Shown here: in pieces, positions 8,275-56,624 of the stretch
Layout of the letters: every line of letters begins with the position of its first letter
Numbering within the stretch: the stretch's first letter is position 1
Program-made: the position numbers and the translations under genes
Notes under the pieces: generated by a model
Databases searched by the model: none
What the model saw: the letters and a program-made list of their open reading frames with translations, nothing else
What the model was told of the DNA's origin: nothing
DNA from: a bacterium
Lineage (GTDB): Bacteria; Patescibacteriota; Patescibacteriia; S139-126
Length of the DNA stretch: 57,450 nt
Direction of reading: 5' to 3'
NCBI GenBank assembly: GCA_030666865.1
Contig: DAOUWZ010000004.1
Span: forward strand, 1-57,450

Positions 8275-8931
8275 ATGAGGAGGGAGATTTTTTATCAAGG
8301 AGGGTTTTATCATATTTATAACCGCGGCGTTGATAAGCGGACAGTTTTTTGTGATGATAAAGATTATGAGAGATTTTTGTTGGGGTTAAATGTGTTTAAT
8401 CAAGTTGAATCGGTGGGTAATTTACGCGATTATATGAGGTTTCAGACATCCGATGTCCGGAGCTCCGGACATCGGATGTCTGAAAGAAAGCAACTAGTTG
8501 AGATAATCGTTTATTGTTTACTACCAAATCATTTTCATTTTATTTTGAAACAAATAGAGAAAGATGGGGTAAGTAAATTTATGCAAAAATTATCGAATGG
8601 TTATACTAAATATTTCAACACTAAATACCACCGTTCAGGAGTATTATTCCAAGGGAAATACAAAGTCAAGCATATTGATTCAGATGAATATTTACTTTGG
8701 CTATCTGCTTATATCAACGCCAATGCCGAAATACATAAAATAAAACCAGCTAATAAACATTGCTGGTCAAGCTACAGTAATTATGTTTTTGGTAAATCTG
8801 ATTTAGTGCCAGTGAATACCAGAATAGTGATGAGTAATTTTAGTAGTGGGGAAAATTATCAGAATTATTTGGATAAGATTATTCCGGTGTGGCAGGAACG
8901 AAAAGAGATAAAAGAATATATTATTGAATAA
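8275..8931 (+). CDS. IS200/IS605-type Y1 HUH transposase-like protein (REP-associated tyrosine transposase, RAYT-like)
   Basis: YHIYNRG N-terminal strand, HUH motif LLPNHFHFIL, GYTKYFN..RSG.LFQGKYK, and a catalytic-Tyr helix YINANAEIH. Single-copy gene without IS ends. Confidence 0.75.
   Translation: MRREIFYQGGFYHIYNRGVDKRTVFCDDKDYERFLLGLNVFNQVESVGNLRDYMRFQTSDVRSSGHRMSERKQLVEIIVYCLLPNHFHFILKQIEKDGVSKFMQKLSNGYTKYFNTKYHRSGVLFQGKYKVKHIDSDEYLLWLSAYINANAEIHKIKPANKHCWSSYSNYVFGKSDLVPVNTRIVMSNFSSGENYQNYLDKIIPVWQERKEIKEYIIE
8440..8485. repeat. P2-family perfect palindrome (46 bp) lying in frame inside the RAYT-like CDS
   Basis: TTTCAGACATCCGATGTCCGGAG|CTCCGGACATCGGATGTCTGAAA encodes FQTSDVRSSGHRMSE. 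Its 40-bp core is identical to the one at 20206-20245. Confidence 0.9.
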
Positions 8932-12237: not shown

Positions 12238-12364
12238 ACAATTATTATATCCTGAAATTTGATAAATAAAAATAACCTAATTAGTTGGTAGGTTTGAGAT
12301 GACGGTTTTTAGTTAGGGTTATTATTTATTTAATATTACAAAATAATGGTGTCTCCAGCAGGAA

Positions 12365-12388
12365 TCCCTGCCTACCGGCAGGCAGGGA
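12365..12388. repeat. P1-family GC palindrome (variant, 1 mismatch)
   Basis: TCCCTGCCTACCGGCAGGCAGGGA, just downstream of tRNA-Arg. Confidence 0.85.
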
Positions 12389-12420
12389 ACCTTAATTAAG
12401 AATTGTAAATTTTATTAGTT

Positions 12421-12495
12421 TGGTGCCCTTGCCAGGAGTCGAACCTGAATTTCGAGATCCGCAATCTCGTGTTCTATCCATTGAACTACAAGGGC
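12421..12495 (-). tRNA. tRNA-Arg (anticodon GCG)
   Basis: Manual cloverleaf: acceptor GCCCTTG/CAAGGGC, D arm GTTC/GAAC, anticodon arm CGAGA-TTGCGGA-TCTCG, T arm TCAGG-TTCGACT-CCTGG, encoded CCA. Confidence 0.8.
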
Positions 12496-20198: not shown

Positions 20199-20252
20199 AA
20201 TAAAACAGACATCCGATGTCCGGAGCTCCGGACATCGGATGTCTGTTTTATT
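20199..20252. repeat. P2-family perfect palindrome (54 bp). Likely bidirectional terminator after lemA.
   Basis: AAATAAAACAGACATCCGATGTCCGGAG|CTCCGGACATCGGATGTCTGTTTTATTT. A/T runs flank both sides. Confidence 0.9.
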
Positions 20253-24212: not shown

Positions 24213-24257
24213 ACAAATTTTAAATTATACCTGCCTGCCGGCAGGCAGGAATCCTAA
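24213..24257 (+). repeat. 45-bp direct repeat (left copy), containing a P1 palindrome at 24230-24249
   Basis: ACAAATTTTAAATTATACCTGCCTGCCGGCAGGCAGGAATCCTAA is identical to 25575-25619. Confidence 0.9.
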
Positions 24258-24324: not shown

Positions 24325-24354
24325 TTTTTAGGTTATAGGTTTTAGTTATTAGAA
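24325..24354 (+). repeat. 'Empty-site' fragment of the SR composite repeat (no P1 palindrome)
   Basis: TTTTTAGGTTATA|GGTTTTAGTTATTAGAA has the same flanks as 30736-30786, minus the 20-bp palindrome. Confidence 0.8.
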
Positions 24355-24453: not shown

Positions 24454-25407
24454 CTATTTTATTAAAATCATTTTTTTGACCTGGCTATATCCAGATTGAG
24501 TTGTGAGTTTATAAAAATAGGTTCCGGATGACAAGTTTTGGCCATCAAATGAATAGTTGTAGCTGCCAATAGACAGTTTTTCATCAACCAGAGTAGCCAC
24601 AGTTTGACCTAAGATATTATAAACGGTCAGATTTACGAAATCGGCTTTGTTGATAGAAAAAACGATGTTAGTCGCCGGATTAAACGGATTAGGATAATTC
24701 TGATTGAGTATAAATGATTCTGGAATGCCTTTATAAAAAGGTGATATATGAGAAACTAGATCATCGCCTCCCATATAATCTAAGACACAAGAATCTTTTT
24801 GAGAATGGAATCGAATTTGATCACAGATATGTGATATAGTATCGGAATTACCACCATCTTGGTAAATGAACAGACTGTCAATATGGGTGATTACTGGAAG
24901 TGGATCATTGCCATTTAGATTTTTCCAGTTATGAAAATAAATCGTAGTTGTGTCATCTTGCTCCATTGATTGTCCATCAATAAAACCGTAGCTACCAGAG
25001 TAGTACATTTCACCTTTGTGGCGTATCCAGATTTGGAAAGAGTTTGACGGTGAGTCTGTTATCATTTTCAAATCTGCATAAAGCATTAAATTTGTCATCC
25101 AATCAGGAATTATTGCTTCAGTACTGTCGGTATAGTCTTTGTAATAGAATACATATTCAGATCCAGGTGTTGGGTCGTGAGTGAATTTTAAAGCTTCACT
25201 TTCGCTACCACTTAGACCACAGCACGGATTTATATAGGCCGAGTCGGGTAGCTGAATATTATACTCAAACCATGGAGTTGTTTCTGGGTAACATGGGACA
25301 TACCCCAGTATTGGTTGAAGATTTGTTGAAGTTGTTTGCGCAAAAGTTGTTCCCACCAATCCTGCGAAGAGCAGGATTACGCTTAAAAAAGTTAGATATT
25401 TTTTCAT
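24454..25407 (-). CDS. Secreted protein with a T9SS-type (Por_Secre_tail) C-terminal sorting domain
   Basis: Signal peptide ending TFAQ. C-terminal NYPNPFNPATNIVFSI...VYNILGQTVATLVDE...SGTYFYKLT...KKMILIK matches the type-A T9SS CTD pattern. SD GGGAGGA. Confidence 0.7.
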   Translation of the reverse strand: MKKYLTFLSVILLFAGLVGTTFAQTTSTNLQPILGYVPCYPETTPWFEYNIQLPDSAYINPCCGLSGSESEALKFTHDPTPGSEYVFYYKDYTDSTEAIIPDWMTNLMLYADLKMITDSPSNSFQIWIRHKGEMYYSGSYGFIDGQSMEQDDTTTIYFHNWKNLNGNDPLPVITHIDSLFIYQDGGNSDTISHICDQIRFHSQKDSCVLDYMGGDDLVSHISPFYKGIPESFILNQNYPNPFNPATNIVFSINKADFVNLTVYNILGQTVATLVDEKLSIGSYNYSFDGQNLSSGTYFYKLTTQSGYSQVKKMILIK

Positions 25408-25574: not shown

Positions 25575-25619
25575 ACAAATTTTAAATTATACCTGCCTGC
25601 CGGCAGGCAGGAATCCTAA
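25575..25619 (+). repeat. 45-bp direct repeat (right copy), containing a P1 palindrome at 25592-25611
   Basis: Identical to 24213-24257. Confidence 0.9.
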
Positions 25620-30458: not shown

Positions 30459-30516
30459 ATTAACATACCTACATCCGATGTCGGGATTTCCCGACATCGG
30501 ATGTAGGTATGTTAAT
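30459..30516. repeat. P2-family palindrome (58 bp, variant)
   Basis: ATTAACATACCTACATCCGATGTCGGGA-tt-TCCCGACATCGGATGTAGGTATGTTAAT. It shares the ACATCCGATGTCSGGA core with 8440-8485 and 20199-20252. Confidence 0.9.
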
Positions 30517-30730: not shown

Positions 30731-30858
30731 ATTAGTTTTTAGGTTATACCTGCCTGCCGGCAGGCAGGGGTTTTAGTTATTAGAAGATGAGAATTATTAA
30801 ATCTACAACCTGAAAACTAGCAACTAACAACTATAACCTAAAAACTAACAACTATTCT
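30731..30858 (+). repeat. SR composite repeat, copy A (P1 palindrome at 30749-30768), ending at the rpsL ATG
   Basis: A 55-nt block (30734-30788) is identical to 31290-31344. A 31-nt block (30824-30854) is identical to 31373-31403. Confidence 0.9.
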
Positions 30859-31284
30859 ATGCCTACAATTAATCAATTATTGAAAAAACCAAGGAAATCA
30901 AAGCATAAAAAGTCTAATAGTCCGGCTATTCAGACTGTTTTTAATGTGCTGAAAAGAAGACGGACGACTTTGCCAAAAGGAGCAGGTTTTAAACGCGGAG
31001 TATGTTTGAAAGTAACCACTACTACGCCAAAAAAACCAAATTCTGCTTTGCGGAAGATTGCCAGAGTTAGACTTTCAAATGGCATGGAAGTGACCGCTTA
31101 TATTCCAGGTATGGGTCATAATTTACAAGAACATAGTGTTGTTTTGGTTAGAGGCGGTCGGGTTAGCGATTTGCCTGGTGTGCGTTATAAGGTTGTCAGA
31201 GGGGTGTATGATGCTCAAGGCGTTGAAGGTAGAATGCAAAGCCGGTCTCGGTATGGCACTAAAAAGCCAAAAGCGAAGAAATAA
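30859..31284 (+). CDS. rpsL: 30S ribosomal protein S12
   Basis: [12 protein letters not shown]...[10 protein letters not shown]...[18 protein letters not shown]. Confidence 0.97.
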
Positions 31285-31287
31285 TTA

Positions 31288-31407
31288 TCAGTTTTTAGGT
31301 TATACCTGCCTGCCGGCAGGCAGGGGTTTTAGTTATTAGAAGATTAAAGTTATTTAACCTACAACCTAAAGACTAACAACTATAACCTAAAAACTAACAA
31401 CTAATAT
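31288..31407 (+). repeat. SR composite repeat, copy B (P1 palindrome at 31305-31324), filling the rpsL-rpsG spacer
   Basis: See copy A. Confidence 0.9.
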
Positions 31408-31887
31408 ATGAGAGGAAAAAGAGCGCCAAAAAGAAAAATAATTCCAGATCCAAAATATAATTCAATTTTGGTTGCGAAGTTTATTAACCAAATAATGAGA
31501 AATGGTAAGAAAACATTAGCTCAAAAAATAGTTTATCAATGTTTTGATATGCTTCAAGAAAAAACCAAACAAAAATCAGTTGAAGTTTTTGAGAAATCAC
31601 TTAGAAATATTGCGCCGTCAGTAGAAGTTAAGGGTCGTCGGATCGGCGGAGCTAATTATCAGGTTCCGATTCCAGTTACTGGAGATAGAAAAAATACCTT
31701 AGCTTTTAGGTGGCTTATTGAAGCTGCTAAAAATAAAAAAGGCAAATCAATGGCTGAAAAATTGGCTAATGAATTGTTATTAGCTTTGAATAATGAAGGT
31801 GATACTATCAAAAAGAAACAGGATGTACAGCGTATGGCTGAATCAAATAGAGCATTTGCTCATTTTGCAAATTATAAGAGAAGATAA
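31408..31887 (+). CDS. rpsG: 30S ribosomal protein S7
   Basis: Conserved S7 sequence (PDPKYNS..VAKFIN..MRNGKK, VEVKGRRIGGANYQVP). Confidence 0.97.
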   Translation: MRGKRAPKRKIIPDPKYNSILVAKFINQIMRNGKKTLAQKIVYQCFDMLQEKTKQKSVEVFEKSLRNIAPSVEVKGRRIGGANYQVPIPVTGDRKNTLAFRWLIEAAKNKKGKSMAEKLANELLLALNNEGDTIKKKQDVQRMAESNRAFAHFANYKRR

Positions 31888-32008
31888 GTCAGGTTATACC
31901 TACCTGCCGGCAGGCAGGGGTTTTAGTTATTGAAAGACTGAGAATTATTAAACCTACAATCTAAAAATTATTAACTAACAACTACAACCTAAAAACTAAC
32001 AACTAACT
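31888..32008 (+). repeat. SR composite repeat, copy C (P1 variant at 31899-31918, 1 mismatch), filling the rpsG-fusA spacer
   Basis: Same architecture as copies A and B. Confidence 0.85.
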
Positions 32009-34090: not shown

Positions 34091-34183
34091 GTTACAGTTG
34101 TCAGGTTATAGGTTTTAGGAATTATTTAATTTTCTAATACCTATGAACCAAAACCTACAACCTAATAACTAACAACTAAATTT
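34091..34183 (+). repeat. SR composite repeat, copy D (lacks the P1 palindrome: CAGGTTATA|GGTTTTAG)
   Basis: Same arms and the same G-poor right half (AACCTACAACCTAATAACTAACAACTAA) as copies A-C. Confidence 0.75.
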
Positions 34184-34498
34184 ATGTCACAATGGTCAGA
34201 CATAATTAGCACAGTAAAAAAAATAAATAGAGAAGTAATTATAATAGATGGCGATAAGACTTTTGTGGTAATGGATTTGGCTAAATATGATGAATTGTTA
34301 TCAAAAGAGGATATTTTGGATATGAATGAGGATGAATTTTTAAACGAGATTAATAGACAAGTAGCAGTTTGGAAGTTAAATCATGAGCAGGATCAAGAAA
34401 CAGCAGTGGCTTCTAGTATAGAAACAGCTAATGATAAAGAGTATCAGAAAGATAAAAATAGTGATGATGATACTTTTTATATCGAACCAGTAGAATAG
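34184..34498 (+). CDS. Hypothetical acidic protein with a Phd/YefM-like N-terminal segment
   Basis: REVIIIDGDKTFVVMDLAKYDELL resembles the antitoxin beta-alpha core. Acidic tail. No adjacent toxin ORF. Confidence 0.35.
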   Translation: MSQWSDIISTVKKINREVIIIDGDKTFVVMDLAKYDELLSKEDILDMNEDEFLNEINRQVAVWKLNHEQDQETAVASSIETANDKEYQKDKNSDDDTFYIEPVE

Positions 34499-38743: not shown

Positions 38744-39583
38744 ATGGTAATTGTTAAATACAAACCAACCACCCCGGGCAGACGTTTATCATCAGTAAAC
38801 AGAAATAGTGATTTAGTCAAACCGAAGCAGAGGAGTTTGCTTAAAAGTAAGAAAAGTTCTTCGGGCAGAAATAATCAAGGTAAAATAACTATTCGTCGTA
38901 GAGGTGGCGGAGCAAAAAGGCATTATCGCATCATTGATTTTAAGCGTGATAAATTTGATATACCAGCAAAAGTTGTGGCATTGGAATATGATCCAAATCG
39001 AAGTGCTAATATTGCTTTCTTGCAGTATGCTGATGGAGATAAGAGATACATTATTGCTGGTCAAGGCTTGAAAGTAGGACAAGTAATTTTATCTAGCAAT
39101 AAAAAAATTGACATTAAGACTGGTAATAATATGCCACTTGAATATATTCCAGCTGGACAAGTATTGAATAGTGTTGAATTGATTCCTGGTGCGGGAGCCA
39201 AGTTGGCTCGTAGCGCTGGTAATGAGATAATATTGATGGGCAGGGAAAAAGGAATGGCTCAATTGAAAATGCCATCAAGTGAGATACGTCTTATTCCAGA
39301 AGGTTGTAGAGCAACATTGGGAGAGGTTGGTAATGCAGAACATGGTAATATTAGATGGGGTAAAGCTGGAAGAATGAGACATCGTGGCAAACGCCCACAA
39401 GTAAGAGGTAAAGCTATGAATCCAGTAGATCATCCGCATGGCGGTGGTGAAGGTAGTCAGCCTATTGGCATGAAACATCCAAAGACCAAATGGGGTAAGC
39501 CAGCCTTGGGAGTTAAAACTAGAAAGAAAAATAAAGCTAGTAACAGATTGATATTAAAAAGAAGAAAAACTAAGAAAAGATAA
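38744..39583 (+). CDS. rplB: 50S ribosomal protein L2
   Basis: GRNNQGKITIRRRGGG...MNPVDHPHGGGEG. Confidence 0.97.
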   Translation: MVIVKYKPTTPGRRLSSVNRNSDLVKPKQRSLLKSKKSSSGRNNQGKITIRRRGGGAKRHYRIIDFKRDKFDIPAKVVALEYDPNRSANIAFLQYADGDKRYIIAGQGLKVGQVILSSNKKIDIKTGNNMPLEYIPAGQVLNSVELIPGAGAKLARSAGNEIILMGREKGMAQLKMPSSEIRLIPEGCRATLGEVGNAEHGNIRWGKAGRMRHRGKRPQVRGKAMNPVDHPHGGGEGSQPIGMKHPKTKWGKPALGVKTRKKNKASNRLILKRRKTKKR

Positions 39584-39609
39584 ACTAGTATATTGTATAT
39601 AGTAGATAG

Positions 39610-39629
39610 CCTGCCTGCCGGCAGGCAGG
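39610..39629. repeat. P1-family 20-bp GC palindrome in the rplB-rpsS spacer
   Basis: CCTGCCTGCCGGCAGGCAGG, exact. Confidence 0.95.
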
Positions 39630-39713
39630 TATGTAGCAAAAATATGAACAGTGAAGACAAACTAATCTTATATACTACCTATATACTATATACTAAATAC
39701 TAAATACAAAAAT

Positions 39714-49146: not shown

Positions 49147-49206
49147 CCTGCCTGCTCCTCGAGTCTGAGCCCGAGGCTCACCTTAGAGCGATGACCGGTA
49201 GGCAGG
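49147..49206. repeat. P1-like stem (CCTGCCTGC/ACCGGTAGGCAGG) enclosing a ~40-nt loop that carries its own hairpin
   Basis: CCTGCCTGC-TCCTCGAGTCTGAGCCCGAGGCTCACCTTAGAGCGATG-ACCGGTAGGCAGG. Confidence 0.7.
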
Positions 49207-49297
49207 GATTGTAGTTTTTAGATAGTGGTAGTTTATTTACCTCGCCATTAAACAAGTAATCACTAAAAATTACAAACTAATACCTAAAAACTAGTTT

Positions 49298-53056: not shown

Positions 53057-53116
53057 AGTTGTTAGTGATTAGGTTATAGTTGTTAGTGATTAGGTTATAG
53101 TTGTTAGTGATTAGGA
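53057..53116 (-). repeat. 21-bp tandem repeat (2.9 copies), part of an SR-like element between dnaB and ybaB
   Basis: AGTTGTTAGTGATTAGGTTAT occurs twice, followed by an 18-nt partial copy. The complementary G-poor arm (ACCTATCACCTACAACCTATAACC) follows at 53129-53152. Confidence 0.9.
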
Positions 53117-53151
53117 ATTTTATCTAAAACCTATCACCTACAACCTATAAC

Positions 53152-54528
53152 CTAGAATTGTGGTTCTGGCATTGGGGTTGTATTTTTAGCTTTATTTTCA
53201 AATCTGACTTTTTCTTCATTAAAAATAAGTTCAATCTTGCCAGTTGGTCCGTTTCTGTGTTTAGCTATGAATATTTCAGCAATATTTCTGCGATCAGGAT
53301 CAGTTTCTTCTCGTTTATACATATATTCCCTATAAATAAACACAACAATATCTGCATCTTGTTCAATAGAACCAGATTCTCGTAAGTGAGCGAGTTTTGG
53401 AATAGGGGGTTTTTCAAGTTCAACTGCACGGGAAAGTTGAGAAAGGGCAAGTACTGGTATATTTAGTTCGCGAGCTAAAGCTTTTAAAGCCCTGGTAATT
53501 TCAGCTACTTCTTGGACGCGGTTATCACTATTTTTTGATCGACCTTCCATCAATTGCAAATAGTCAACAACTATTAGCTCAAGTCCGTGTTCGCTTTTTA
53601 GTCTTCTGGCTTTAGTTCTCAGTTCCATTATATTTGATGAAGCGGAATCGTCAATAAATATTGGCGCTTCGGAAAGCGTGGCCATAGCATGACCAATGCG
53701 AGGAAAATCATTATCAGTTTCTCGGTCAGATAAGCGGCCAGTTCGCATTTTCCATAAATCAACTCCAGCTTCAGCGCAAAGCATACGGTCAACCAATTGT
53801 TCTTTACTCATTTCCAATGAAAAAATTCCGACTGGATGTTTATTTTTGCCGATCAGCCTGGCAATATCAAGGGCTAAAGTAGTTTTACCCATTGACGGTC
53901 GGGCTGCCAATATTATTAAGTCTGATTTTTGCAAGCCAGCCAGTTTATTATCCAGATCATAAAAACCGGTTGGCACACCTCTGATTTTTCCGCCTTCCTT
54001 ATGTAATTCGTCAATTCTTTCAAAAGTATCATCTAAAACAGATTTAACAGGAATAAAATTTTGCTTTAAATGTTTCTGGGAAATTTGAAATATTTTTTGT
54101 TCAGCTTGATCAAGCAGGGCATCAACTTTTTCTTCTTCGCTGAATCCCAATGAAGTTATTTCCTGAGCTGCAATTATCATTTTTCTAAGCGCTGCTTTTT
54201 TCTGGATAATATTGGCATAAGAGACAATATTTGAAGAAGTAACCACGGCGTTAGTCAGTTCTGTTAGGTAAGTCCGGCCGCCAATTTTTTCCAGAATTTT
54301 TTTCTCAGTCAGTCGATTGGTCAAACTAAGCAGATCAATTGGTTCTCTTTCTGAATATAATTCCAACATTAGTTCAAAAATATTTTGATGAGATTCTTTA
54401 TAAAAATCTTCAGTAGAGATAGTGTCAGCGATTTTTGATATCGCATCGGAATCAATTAAAATAGAGCCCAAAACATTAGTTTCAGCCTCCAGATTTTGTG
54501 GTGGTAATTTTTCAATATTATTACTCAT
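53152..54528 (-). CDS. dnaB: Replicative DNA helicase DnaB
   Basis: PPQNLEAETNVLGSIL, Walker A ARPSMGKTT and the RecA-like C-terminal domain. Confidence 0.95.
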   Translation of the reverse strand: MSNNIEKLPPQNLEAETNVLGSILIDSDAISKIADTISTEDFYKESHQNIFELMLELYSEREPIDLLSLTNRLTEKKILEKIGGRTYLTELTNAVVTSSNIVSYANIIQKKAALRKMIIAAQEITSLGFSEEEKVDALLDQAEQKIFQISQKHLKQNFIPVKSVLDDTFERIDELHKEGGKIRGVPTGFYDLDNKLAGLQKSDLIILAARPSMGKTTLALDIARLIGKNKHPVGIFSLEMSKEQLVDRMLCAEAGVDLWKMRTGRLSDRETDNDFPRIGHAMATLSEAPIFIDDSASSNIMELRTKARRLKSEHGLELIVVDYLQLMEGRSKNSDNRVQEVAEITRALKALARELNIPVLALSQLSRAVELEKPPIPKLAHLRESGSIEQDADIVVFIYREYMYKREETDPDRRNIAEIFIAKHRNGPTGKIELIFNEEKVRFENKAKNTTPMPEPQF

Positions 54529-55921: not shown

Positions 55922-55997
55922 TGGGCCGTTAGCTCAGTTGGTAGAGCGCCAGGCTTTTAACCTGGGCGTCACAGGTTCGAATCCTGTACGGCCCACC
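55922..55997 (+). tRNA. tRNA-Lys (anticodon UUU)
   Basis: Acceptor GGGCCGT/ACGGCCC, anticodon arm CCAGG-CTTTTAA-CCTGG, T arm ACAGG-TTCGAAT-CCTGT, encoded CCA. Confidence 0.9.
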
Positions 55998-56004
55998 ATA
56001 AAAA

Positions 56005-56041
56005 AGTTTGTTCATCACCTAGTGGTGTGCAAACTTTTTTT
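56005..56041 (+). terminator. Intrinsic terminator after tRNA-Lys
   Basis: GTTTG...CAAAC stem with an inner CACC/GGTG pairing, followed by TTTTTTTT. Confidence 0.65.
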
Positions 56042-56184
56042 ATTTTGATTGTTTCAGGATTCGAACGGGCAGGAGCGAGTATTGAGCAGAGCGAAATAAA
56101 CGAGCGACGACCAAAGCGAGTAAGCGTAGCTTTGGGCGCTGCCCAGTACAACGAAGTTGAGTGAAGCGAAACGAGGCGGAAATC

Positions 56185-56204
56185 CCTGCCTGCCGGCAGG
56201 CAGG
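56185..56204. repeat. P1-family 20-bp GC palindrome interrupting a duplicated tRNA-Lys 3' end
   Basis: CCTGCCTGCCGGCAGGCAGG, exact, flanked by GAAATC| and |CTGTACGGCCCACCAT. Confidence 0.95.
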
Positions 56205-56220
56205 CTGTACGGCCCACCAT
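56205..56220 (+). repeat. 16-nt direct repeat of the tRNA-Lys 3' end
   Basis: CTGTACGGCCCACCAT is identical to 55983-55998. Confidence 0.9.
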
Positions 56221-56351
56221 TCGACTCGCTCCTATAAGGAGTTCGCTCATGGTCTGCAGCACTAACATGCTTTTGACCACTCTCATTTATTATCTTCGCG
56301 AGTCGAATGCCCTGAGCCTGCCGAAGGGCAAATTTAAAAATCTCTTAACCT

Positions 56352-56624
56352 ATAAAATACTTTGCATATTTAGCACGCTGTAATGATGAATCTTTATATA
56401 TTGGTTCTTGTACTAACATTGAAGCTAGAGAAATAAAAGACAATAAAGGTGAAGGTGCTCAGTATACAAAACAAAGACAACCTACAAAAATAATATATTT
56501 TGAAAAGTTTGATAGTTTGGTTGAAGCTACTAGACGAGAGAAACAAATTAAAGGATGGATTTGTGAAAAGAAAGAAAATTTAGTGAAGTATGGTCATCCG
56601 ACAAAATTTAGTAATAGTTATTAA
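56352..56624 (+). pseudogene. GIY-YIG nuclease family (UPF0213/YhbQ-like) ORF with ATA where the start codon is expected
   Basis: The in-frame translation is (I)KYFAYLARCNDESLYIGSCTNIEAREIKDNKGEGAQYTKQRQPTKIIYFEKFDSLVEATRREKQIKGWICEKKENL. A TAA lies 2 codons upstream, and no ATG/GTG/TTG is available. Confidence 0.6.

Follow-up and report, generated by a model that had tools for sequence, protein, structure and literature searches.

Why should one GC-only word recur along DNA that is otherwise AT-rich, and what carries it there? The question is raised by a stretch of 57,450 nt (positions 1 to 57,450 of contig DAOUWZ010000004.1, assembly GCA_030666865.1; hereafter the window) from a member of the Patescibacteria (candidate phyla radiation, CPR), which holds recG, three tRNAs and the str/S10 ribosomal protein operon. 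Its GC content is 26–37%, and the main GC-rich island of its intergenic DNA is a repeated 20-bp perfect GC palindrome, CCTGCCTGCCGGCAGGCAGG (hereafter the palindrome). Our analysis points to this 20-mer being a very small, non-autonomous mobile element, most probably partnered by GIY-YIG nucleases that form a family of the Slx1/UPF0213 type, a reading in which our confidence is evenly balanced.

The palindrome is a precise 20-bp insertion

The original prediction had listed six exact copies of the palindrome in the window, two copies with one mismatch and a long-loop variant. All six exact copies were recovered (Table 1; copies are named by their first position), and so was the long-loop variant, with arms CCTGCCTGCT and GGTAGGCAGG and 40 nt between them; one of the one-mismatch copies stands where it had been placed, at 31899–31918, but the other is at 12367–12386 and not at 12365. 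In counts of the word in the window and in 100 dinucleotide-preserving shuffles of it, the shuffles gave 0, ruling out chance occurrence and bearing out the claim that the density is beyond chance. Likewise, every copy lies outside real genes, and no target-site duplication was seen at the window copies, either in their flanks or by comparison with empty sites. The left flanks are of the ATA, ATC or TAG type that had been noticed (TTATA in five copies, AATC in two and ATAG in one), and the spurious open reading frames (ORFs) containing CLPAGR are present at 31136..31339 (+) and 39457..39660 (−).

Logan contigs from three runs, belonging to three studies (marine sediment, cold seep), contained the window sequence without any difference, and loose contig ends in these runs showed further palindrome copies with other flanks. 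Because the sequence is identical in independent metagenome runs, and because cultured isolates also carry the word, an assembly artefact can be ruled out.

Copies 30749, 31305 and 31899 are located 83–90 nt before rpsL, rpsG and fusA, respectively, always at the same place of a 118-nt repeat unit. This unit is built of heptamers, with GGTTATA GGTTTTA GTTATTA upstream and the complementary CTAACAA CTATAAC CTAAAAA directly before the ATG. The same unit, minus the 20 bp, occurs at two other places of the window (GGTTATA^GGTTTTAG, where the caret marks the junction; repeat family D7). From the comparison of filled and empty paralogous sites, the palindrome is therefore a discrete insertion of exactly 20 bp between A and G, without target duplication. 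The existence of empty sites, together with flanks that fall into at least five unrelated classes, also rules out that the copies are parts of one long conserved RNA; at gathering thresholds, the three tRNAs were the sole Rfam matches in the window.

The element is thus multiplied in the window, with 8–9 copies in 57 kb: five in heptamer-hairpin arms, within leaders of ribosomal and other genes, two in heptamer-like, AT-rich spacers that share their flanks, and two in tRNA 3′ remnants. Nested or extended forms comparable to the variant at 49147 were found in other loci (L186, L189, L018 and L042). A presence/absence comparison with siblings, as had been proposed, showed that relatives whose S7 protein is 77–83% identical possess heptamer leaders as well, yet their rpsL-rpsG-fusA spacers are free of the palindrome, which indicates that the lineage of the window gained its copies recently and at unusual density.

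The identical 20-mer is found across phyla and in phages

An exact scan of one genome per species retrieved at least 120 stretches, and the site statistics that follow are among the matches listed. The identical 20-mer is present in at least 120 species genomes of 30–72% GC. Carriers include Patescibacteria, Bacteroidota, Omnitrophota, Planctomycetota, Gammaproteobacteria, Bdellovibrionota, Desulfobacterota, Nitrospirota-like bacteria, Chloroflexota and others, with the cultured Bacteroidota Winogradskyella, Flagellimonas, Longitalea and Flavivirga among them. The palindrome also appeared in 35 viral stretches of IMG/VR.

The flanks of the palindrome are unrelated between loci. A flank profile of 124 sites did not reveal any target consensus, the commonest junction, A^T, accounting for 33 of them; nor did it contain the GTAG or CGTC tag (the top 4-mers, TAGA and TTTA, occurred six times each) or a conserved tetranucleotide, so that the short target motif expected by the original prediction was not borne out. 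The apparent length of the target duplication was 0–1 in 109 of the 124 sites. Insertions are biased towards intergenic DNA, since only 30 of 123 sites fell in long open frames (with the palindrome removed), as compared with a frame coverage of 79% for the loci. In other phyla, the flanks are richer in period-7 tandem repeats than controls (3.9% vs 0.2%, at the 0.6 level). No recurrent neighbour was found within 1.5 kb of the ca. 120 genome copies, except for a small GIY-YIG ORF cluster. In addition, when the palindrome was deleted the junction resembled a tRNA in 11 of 170 sites, compared with 1 of 893 random control positions.

Variant copies carry the double substitutions C9T+G16A, in three loci, and C5A+G12T, in one (L166:372, L169:1429, L195:1920 and L184:1465). 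Such pairs would restore pairing only if the CCTG/CAGG repeat hairpin slips to a register with a 6-bp stem, and not in the full 10-bp stem, which is suggestive but thin. Only two clean cases of one palindrome nested within another were found, each with the split after position 11, and so small a number does not carry an argument.

Two further observations concern unusual copies. The end of a viral contig (L154:3916-4142) contains a tandem array in which a two-mismatch variant, CCATGCCTACCGGCAGGCAGG, recurs in 21-nt units, ten or more in number; this could be either a real amplification or an assembly effect. Also, there are tRNAs that bear the palindrome and look otherwise complete (L145:2239-2330, L122 and L085); in the phage tRNA-Met of L145, ARAGORN reads the palindrome as a long variable arm, and the related contig L122 has lost 13 nt beside the palindrome.

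Palindromes split tRNA remnants that flank GIY-YIG cassettes

Two of the window copies interrupt remnants of tRNA genes (Table 1). The remnant at 12347 comprises a T-arm and acceptor end, which match tRNA T-arms across the joint once the palindrome is deleted, and is 27 nt downstream of an intact tRNA-Arg(gcg) (12421-12495). Around copy 56185, the order is an intact tRNA-Lys, a 3′ tRNA fragment split by the palindrome, and an ORF for a GIY-YIG nuclease.

A similar arrangement was found elsewhere. Loci L037, L106, L118 and L152 have a common layout, consisting of a 5′ fragment of a tRNA (20–46 nt), a short spacer, a GIY-YIG ORF and the same tRNA intact, with the palindrome located in the D-loop or at the anticodon loop of the 5′ fragment. 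In these four loci and in L060 the palindrome is 19–40 nt upstream of the GIY-YIG start. L060 is not a tRNA case: there, the palindrome and the GIY-YIG ORF, 40 nt apart, are in frame inside hsdS, for the specificity subunit of a type I restriction system, within one long open frame (L060:3780-4400).

As an independent test, we aligned six palindrome-linked nucleases and then chose 80 metagenome loci by similarity to the GIY-YIG protein alone. The palindrome, with up to three mismatches, was present in 26 of the 80 loci; in 21 it was 10–52 nt upstream of the ORF, exact in 14 of these, and always in a tRNA 5′ fragment (for example, GGTAGA(palindrome)CGCG, GGATA(palindrome)GAGC and GGCGGAA(palindrome)TTGGTAGAC). 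Other loci of this set had related or longer GC palindromes at that place. An intact tRNA adjoined the ORF in 50 of the 80 loci, 40 times downstream and 10 times upstream, and the cassettes were found beside at least 17 different tRNA anticodon species. On the opposite side, 43 loci contained a duplicate fragment of the tRNA, which was split by an insertion in 32; as compared with the intact tRNA, this insertion was of exactly 20 nt in 16 of the 32, and most of the other fragments end at a palindrome. With an upstream position of the intact tRNA, what remains on the other side is a 3′ fragment whose T-loop holds the palindrome (L166, L200, L205 and L207), as in both remnants of the window. Insertion points cluster in the D-arm, at tRNA positions 9–24 (mode 22), and in the T-loop, at 57, 65 and 68; positions 32 and 39 were each used once, and the first 8 nt never. 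Together, our results indicate a strong, position-specific association of the palindrome with tRNA remnants that flank Slx1-like GIY-YIG cassettes.

The families of palindromes follow the clades of the nuclease: in a permutation test, the within-class distance observed was reached by none of 2000 random sets (0 of 2000), and the order in the tree agrees. Recent turnover is also suggested by sequence comparisons: L207 is identical to L208 and L209 over ca. 700 nt, except for a 63-nt palindromic unit and a 2-nt difference in the split T-loop, and L162 and L180 contain tandem arrays of fragment and cassette; both may be signs of activity.

GIY-YIG genes from other clades do not have an adjoining tRNA (L175, L188, L193, L204, L212, L222, L223; L225, L226, L229, L231, L233 and L236). 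Upstream of these genes there are instead other conserved words, specific to them (CCAGGAAGTGAAAATTCGA...GATTATG and GCCCTGTTAAATAGCTTGAGG), which may be pieces of other target genes.

Table 1. Palindrome copies, empty sites, tRNA features and the GIY-YIG gene of the window (a caret marks a junction).
Feature	Position	Strand	Context and remarks
tRNA 3′ remnant, AAGGTTC^GATTCCTGCTGGAGACACCA	12347..12393	−	Split by the palindrome between T-loop C56 and G57
Palindrome, one mismatch (CCTGCCTACCGGCAGGCAGG)	12367..12386		T-loop of the tRNA 3′ fragment
Palindrome, exact	24230..24249		Between convergent genes; flanks ACAAATTTTAAATTATA / AATCCTAA common to copy 25592 (family D4)
Paralogous empty site, TTTTTAGGTTATA^GGTTTTAGTTATTA	24325..24351	+	Flanks of copies 30749, 31305 and 31899 without the 20 bp
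Palindrome, exact	25592..25611		Between divergent genes; flanks as in copy 24230
Palindrome, exact	30749..30768		rpsL 5′ leader (families D1 and D2); inside the upstream arm of the heptamer-repeat hairpin GGTTATA^GGTTTTA GTTATTA ... CTAACAA CTATAAC CTAAAAA
Palindrome, exact	31305..31324		rpsL-rpsG spacer; 118-nt repeat unit, position as in copy 30749
Palindrome, one mismatch (CCTACCTGCC...)	31899..31918		rpsG-fusA spacer; same 118-nt repeat unit as copies 30749 and 31305
Paralogous empty site, TTGTCAGGTTATA^GGTTTTAGGAATTA	34098..34124	+	Equivalent leader of the next gene (34184); families D7 and D1
Palindrome, exact	39610..39629		rplB-rpsS spacer; upstream arm of the heptamer hairpin TAGTATA TTGTATA TAGTAGA TAG^TATG ... 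TATACTA AATACTA
Long-loop variant	49147..49206		Upstream of ruvX; 40 nt inserted at the palindrome centre; upstream arm of a similar heptamer hairpin
Intact tRNA-Lys(ttt)	55923..55998	+	Last 15 nt repeated at 56205-56219
tRNA-Lys 3′ remnant, AATC(palindrome)CTGTACGGCCCACCA	56181..56219	+	Insertion at the T-loop/T-stem border; read against 55970-55998
Palindrome, exact	56185..56204		Splits the duplicate of the tRNA-Lys 3′ end
GIY-YIG nuclease ORF	56352..56612	+	PF01541, E=1.1e-10; 153 nt downstream of copy 56185

The linked nucleases are Slx1-like catalytic cores

The palindrome-linked nucleases, of ca. 76–100 amino acids, consist of the GIY-YIG catalytic core only (PF01541; five members, one of them the window ORF, matched with E=1e-10 to 1e-16). 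With a six-member profile, the best matches among solved structures were 1YWL (E=5.7e-17) and 1ZG2 (3e-16), which are UPF0213 proteins, followed by chains of SLX1 (1e-4 to 2e-3), a structure-specific endonuclease. The lack of a DNA-binding domain would argue for structure-specific rather than sequence-specific cutting. The nucleases that neighbour identical 20-mers are only ca. 45% identical to each other; an exact 20-mer beside such divergent proteins argues either for sequence-specific recognition or for a very recent spread, and both point to an active system.

A survey from 2006 placed these prokaryotic proteins in the Slx-1 cluster, and described a very recent insertion of a GIY-YIG domain similar to Slx1 into an HsdR gene as well as a fusion of this domain to the tRNA D-loop methyltransferase TrmH; the survey is silent on tRNA genes and repeats (PMC1564403). 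The published hsdR insertion parallels the presence of the palindrome and the GIY-YIG ORF within hsdS in L060.

The GIY-YIG ORF of the window does not have an ATG, GTG or TTG start, the codon at the expected place being ATA, and it may be decaying because it lacks a normal start codon. It is also divergent, with 24% identity to the family that bears the palindrome elsewhere, and we found no close relative of it in viral contigs. The 300 nt before it (56040-56340) are rich in GC and differ in this from the rest of the window; in the Logan runs, loose ends have comparable GC-rich DNA ahead of other copies of the palindrome. Between the tRNA-Lys and copy 56185, the 186-nt GC-rich filler contains no GIY-YIG remnant, and its fold is unremarkable.

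A possible mechanism

We favour the idea that the nuclease moves the palindrome by acting on hairpin, cruciform or loop DNA, as could be the case if the following steps took place. The GIY-YIG genes would be selfish cassettes that settle beside a tRNA, with a truncated duplicate of this tRNA on the far side. The palindrome would go into dispensable DNA, including the D-loop, anticodon loop or T-loop of the truncated duplicate. A structure-specific nuclease would recognise it as a hairpin or cruciform and nick single-stranded loop DNA, so that hairpin units could be cut out and joined in elsewhere, and selection would presumably remove copies from intact tRNAs and genes. The copy within the truncated tRNA repeat may in turn protect the cassette, because the palindrome breaks a direct repeat that could otherwise delete it. 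Since tRNA genes are universal and phages carry cassettes, the pair could cross phyla, which would explain the identical 20-mer. In its strongest form, this would be a minimal system with two parts, in which a structure-specific, Slx1-like GIY-YIG protein of ca. 80 amino acids moves a 20-bp DNA hairpin, spread by parking at the side of tRNAs across at least ten phyla and phages; we put this forward tentatively and consider it doubtful.

Several observations weigh against a role of the nuclease. Of the copies from the DNA scan, only ca. 5% are at 300 nt or less from a GIY-YIG gene, and 33 of the 35 viral stretches with the palindrome do not contain such a gene in the stretch examined; the GIY-YIG family profile identified only two loci in viral contigs. 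Most copies are therefore solo, and any action of the nuclease would be in trans. The GIY-YIG gene of the window is an outlier, both for its divergence and abnormal start and because it is 153 nt, and not 10–52 nt, from the palindrome. The correlation between nuclease clades and palindromes is confounded with host base composition, the loci of the CCGCCCG type being richer in GC. Also, the palindrome could simply build up in tRNA remnants that are dispensable, irrespective of how these arose. A preference for hairpin loops as targets, as evaluated by folding, was not enriched (29 of 165 sites vs 233 of 1506 random positions), and we caught no allele without the 20-mer, the window being identical in the three runs and the cassette locus of a WWE3 bacterium unchanged in four. 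Finally, we know of no biochemical activity for this family of nucleases.

Alternative explanations

The next most probable explanation is that the link with GIY-YIG genes is indirect. The palindrome would be an independent hairpin, selfish or prone to slippage, moved by host machinery for replication or repair or by another enzyme, and surviving in dispensable DNA. The cassettes would simply make dispensable tRNA remnants, and palindromes would pile up there because interrupted repeats are deleted less often. The solo copies far from any GIY-YIG gene agree with this, and so do the copies in other junk-like DNA, such as heptamer arrays, spacers and the inside of other palindromes. Fragments that carry the palindrome but are without a nuclease gene also occur (L004, L015, L180 and the window copy 12367), and the place taken by the palindrome is held in other loci by other GC palindromes, their class following host GC. 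Nevertheless, an indirect link leaves unexplained why one exact 20-mer is found across phyla beside nucleases of ca. 45% identity, why positions in the D-loop and T-loop are repeated and the acceptor stem is never used, and why the spacing to the ORF is as tight as 10–52 nt, also in the non-tRNA case L060. We thus regard it as a possible, rather unlikely explanation.

The original prediction had assigned the palindrome to the chemistry of Y1 enzymes of the HUH type, as in IS200/IS605 or in the REP-associated tyrosine transposases (RAYT) of repetitive extragenic palindromic (REP) sequences, and had pointed to a Y1 gene at 8275-8931 (+), which in this model would act on the single-stranded hairpin. 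This gene is real (Y1_Tnp, Pfam E=1.6e-8), shows weak similarity to the model of REP-associated transposases, and its presence in the window, the hairpin, the lack of target duplication and the intergenic, high-copy pattern would all fit HUH chemistry. A REP is defined as an imperfect palindrome that bears an unpaired tag, GTAG or CGTC, is species-specific and has a Y1/HUH partner that is itself flanked by REPs (PMC3733652). The Y1 ORF, however, is not flanked by palindromes, the nearest copy being 3.4 kb off, and scores 33.9 bits against a cut-off of 80 with the NCBIfam model REP_Tyr_transpos; a relative of Y1 was found near only 1 of the ca. 120 genome copies listed, as a weak match. Neither a 5′ tetranucleotide nor the tag accompanies the palindrome, and a word that is identical across phyla is unlike the species-specific REPs. 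Hence, the idea of a dispersed, mobile hairpin of the REP or miniature inverted-repeat transposable element (MITE) kind was right in its logic, in view of the clean 20-bp insertion without target duplication, the almost always intergenic location and the spurious ORFs; its Y1/HUH partner is unsupported, and we judge this origin improbable.

We consider equally improbable that the palindrome is a host signal in RNA or DNA, such as a terminator or pause site, a protection for mRNA ends, a site for RNase III or a protein operator, with possible roles in the uncoupling of rpsL, rpsG and fusA or in stabilising the mRNA of the nuclease where the tRNA does not cap it. The GC stem is of 8–10 bp, and five copies were terminator-like in a loose consensus scan, owing to their T-rich flanks; in addition, three copies are between genes of one operon, and in the cassettes the hairpin is always at the end of the mRNA away from the tRNA. 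Against this, close relatives do not have the palindrome in the same spacers, which speaks against a regulatory part under conservation; a T-run is absent from most copies, both within the window and outside it, and several are in leaders; and copies exist inside tRNA remnants, other palindromes and phage DNA of unrelated context. Any effects on RNA are more likely side effects or a later co-option.

Lastly, the palindrome can be read as two 10-bp terminal inverted repeats placed head to head (CCTGCCTGCC...GGCAGGCAGG), and hence, with the long-loop forms (49147 and L186), as an internally deleted MITE of a larger DDE-type transposon, but this is extremely improbable because filled and empty sites differ by exactly 20 bp without target duplication, no full-length element or transposase recurs beside the ca. 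120 genome copies listed, 20 bp is too short for a paired-end complex, and the long-loop forms have the look of a palindrome that was interrupted at its centre by an insertion.

Heptamer leaders and other features of the window

Many gene leaders of the window are made of tandem heptamers of the CTAACAA/CTATAAC/CTAAAAA type that reach up to the ATG, without a Shine-Dalgarno motif, and a complementary heptamer array (GGTTATA/GGTTTTA) is located 40–60 nt upstream, so that the pair can form a long AT-rich hairpin. Regions with heptamer arrays are found at 30731-30855, 31287-31404, 31882-32006, 34098-34179, 39585-39712, 49207-49294 and 53066-53154. Relatives have the same leader design with other heptamers (TTCTAAA, CTACTAA and ATACTAA).

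Two strains with identical S7 differ in that one has an extra 23S_rRNA_IVP gene between rpsG and fusA (L159:1031-1408 vs L158:886-1010), and a third relative has such a gene upstream of rpsG (L242:49-414). The product is a four-helix bundle similar to bAvd, and complementary heptamer arrays stand on both sides of the gene. Insertions of genes of the 23S_rRNA_IVP type may have left the empty heptamer hairpins of the window as scars. Between fusA and tuf, the window contains an ORF for 104 amino acids without a Pfam match (34184-34498). It is probably a real, lineage-specific gene of the str operon, because relatives L156, L158 and L159 have an unannotated ORF, for 98–128 amino acids, at the same place.

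Palindrome copies 24230 and 25592, with their identical flanks, bracket a gene (24454-25407, −) for a protein of 317 amino acids with a C-terminal sorting domain of type IX secretion (Por_Secre_tail), which is unusual for Patescibacteria. The window also contains a second family of perfect palindromes, of 40 nt (CAGACATCCGATGTCCGGAGCTCCGGACATCGGATGTCTG), at 8443-8482, 20206-20245 and 30468-30507, two of which are identical and one an 80% variant. The copy at 8443-8482 is in frame inside the Y1 ORF, which stays open and there encodes FQTSDVRSSGHRMSE, resembling an in-frame palindromic insertion. Neither viral contigs nor the loci fetched contained this 40-nt palindrome, and the Y1 protein did not have any match in the PDB.

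Relation to known systems and significance

Small palindromic repeats are frequent in bacteria but, to our knowledge, their movement is understood only for REP/RAYT. Like the REPtrons of Proteobacteria, the element described here is a short, intergenic, multi-copy palindrome, non-autonomous and without target duplication; for REPs, too, a presumed movement in trans is attributed to a nuclease or transposase, whose gene is present in one copy and is accompanied by the repeat. Unlike REPs, our palindrome has perfect symmetry, bears no tag and does not differ between phyla, and the gene found with it encodes a GIY-YIG nuclease and adjoins a tRNA. IS200/IS605 elements also depend on hairpins, use single strands and do not duplicate their target, but they need two different ends and a fixed 5′ target of 4–5 nt, whereas we found a single symmetric hairpin and no fixed word.

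Other short, GC-rich palindromes have invaded AT-rich genomes, as happened with the GC clusters of yeast mitochondria, the PstI palindromes of Neurospora mitochondria and the palindromic elements of Rickettsia. These elements, of 30–150 bp, are inserted in spacers and at times within genes or RNAs, and each of them is restricted to a single organelle or genus, unlike a perfect palindrome of 20 bp that is common to many bacterial phyla and phages. The Rickettsia palindromic elements are also mentioned in PMC3733652.

The cassettes share with those of homing endonucleases the GIY-YIG domain, a host tRNA that stays intact beside the gene, and tandem re-insertions. They are similar to the Seg genes of T4-like phages, among them SegB in the tRNA region, in being small, selfish GIY-YIG genes next to or among tRNA genes that spread by DNA breakage and repair; SegB is reported to drive the segmental amplification of tRNA loci (PMC13096335). 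Seg proteins, however, have ca. 200 amino acids and DNA-binding domains, as opposed to a catalytic core of ca. 76 amino acids, and the fixed order of truncated tRNA copy, cassette and intact tRNA, with a conserved palindrome in the truncated copy, is not described for Seg. By sequence, the nucleases belong to the same family as the prokaryotic Slx1-like (UPF0213) proteins, for which the arrangement with tRNA duplicate and palindrome, a function, a target or an associated repeat are not described in the literature searched. Likewise, we found in this literature no description of the 20-mer or of the arrangement of palindrome, tRNA remnant and GIY-YIG gene.

For genome annotation, the palindrome creates false ORFs (with CLPAGR or PACRQAG peptides), breaks short-read assemblies and marks tRNA pseudo-fragments, and tRNA finders may miss fragments split by it or call odd tRNAs. 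If the link with the nuclease is functional, it would provide a testable function for the prokaryotic Slx1/UPF0213 family, whose role has been unknown for two decades, it would explain how GC-rich hairpins invade AT-rich, reduced genomes, even in the main ribosomal protein operon, and it would supply a simple marker of horizontal traffic between distant bacteria. Demonstration that a GIY-YIG enzyme moves the hairpin would make the system categorically new: the palindrome would be the smallest mobile DNA known, moved by a new transposition chemistry, based on GIY-YIG and not on DDE, HUH, serine or tyrosine enzymes, and the UPF0213 proteins would have their first function.

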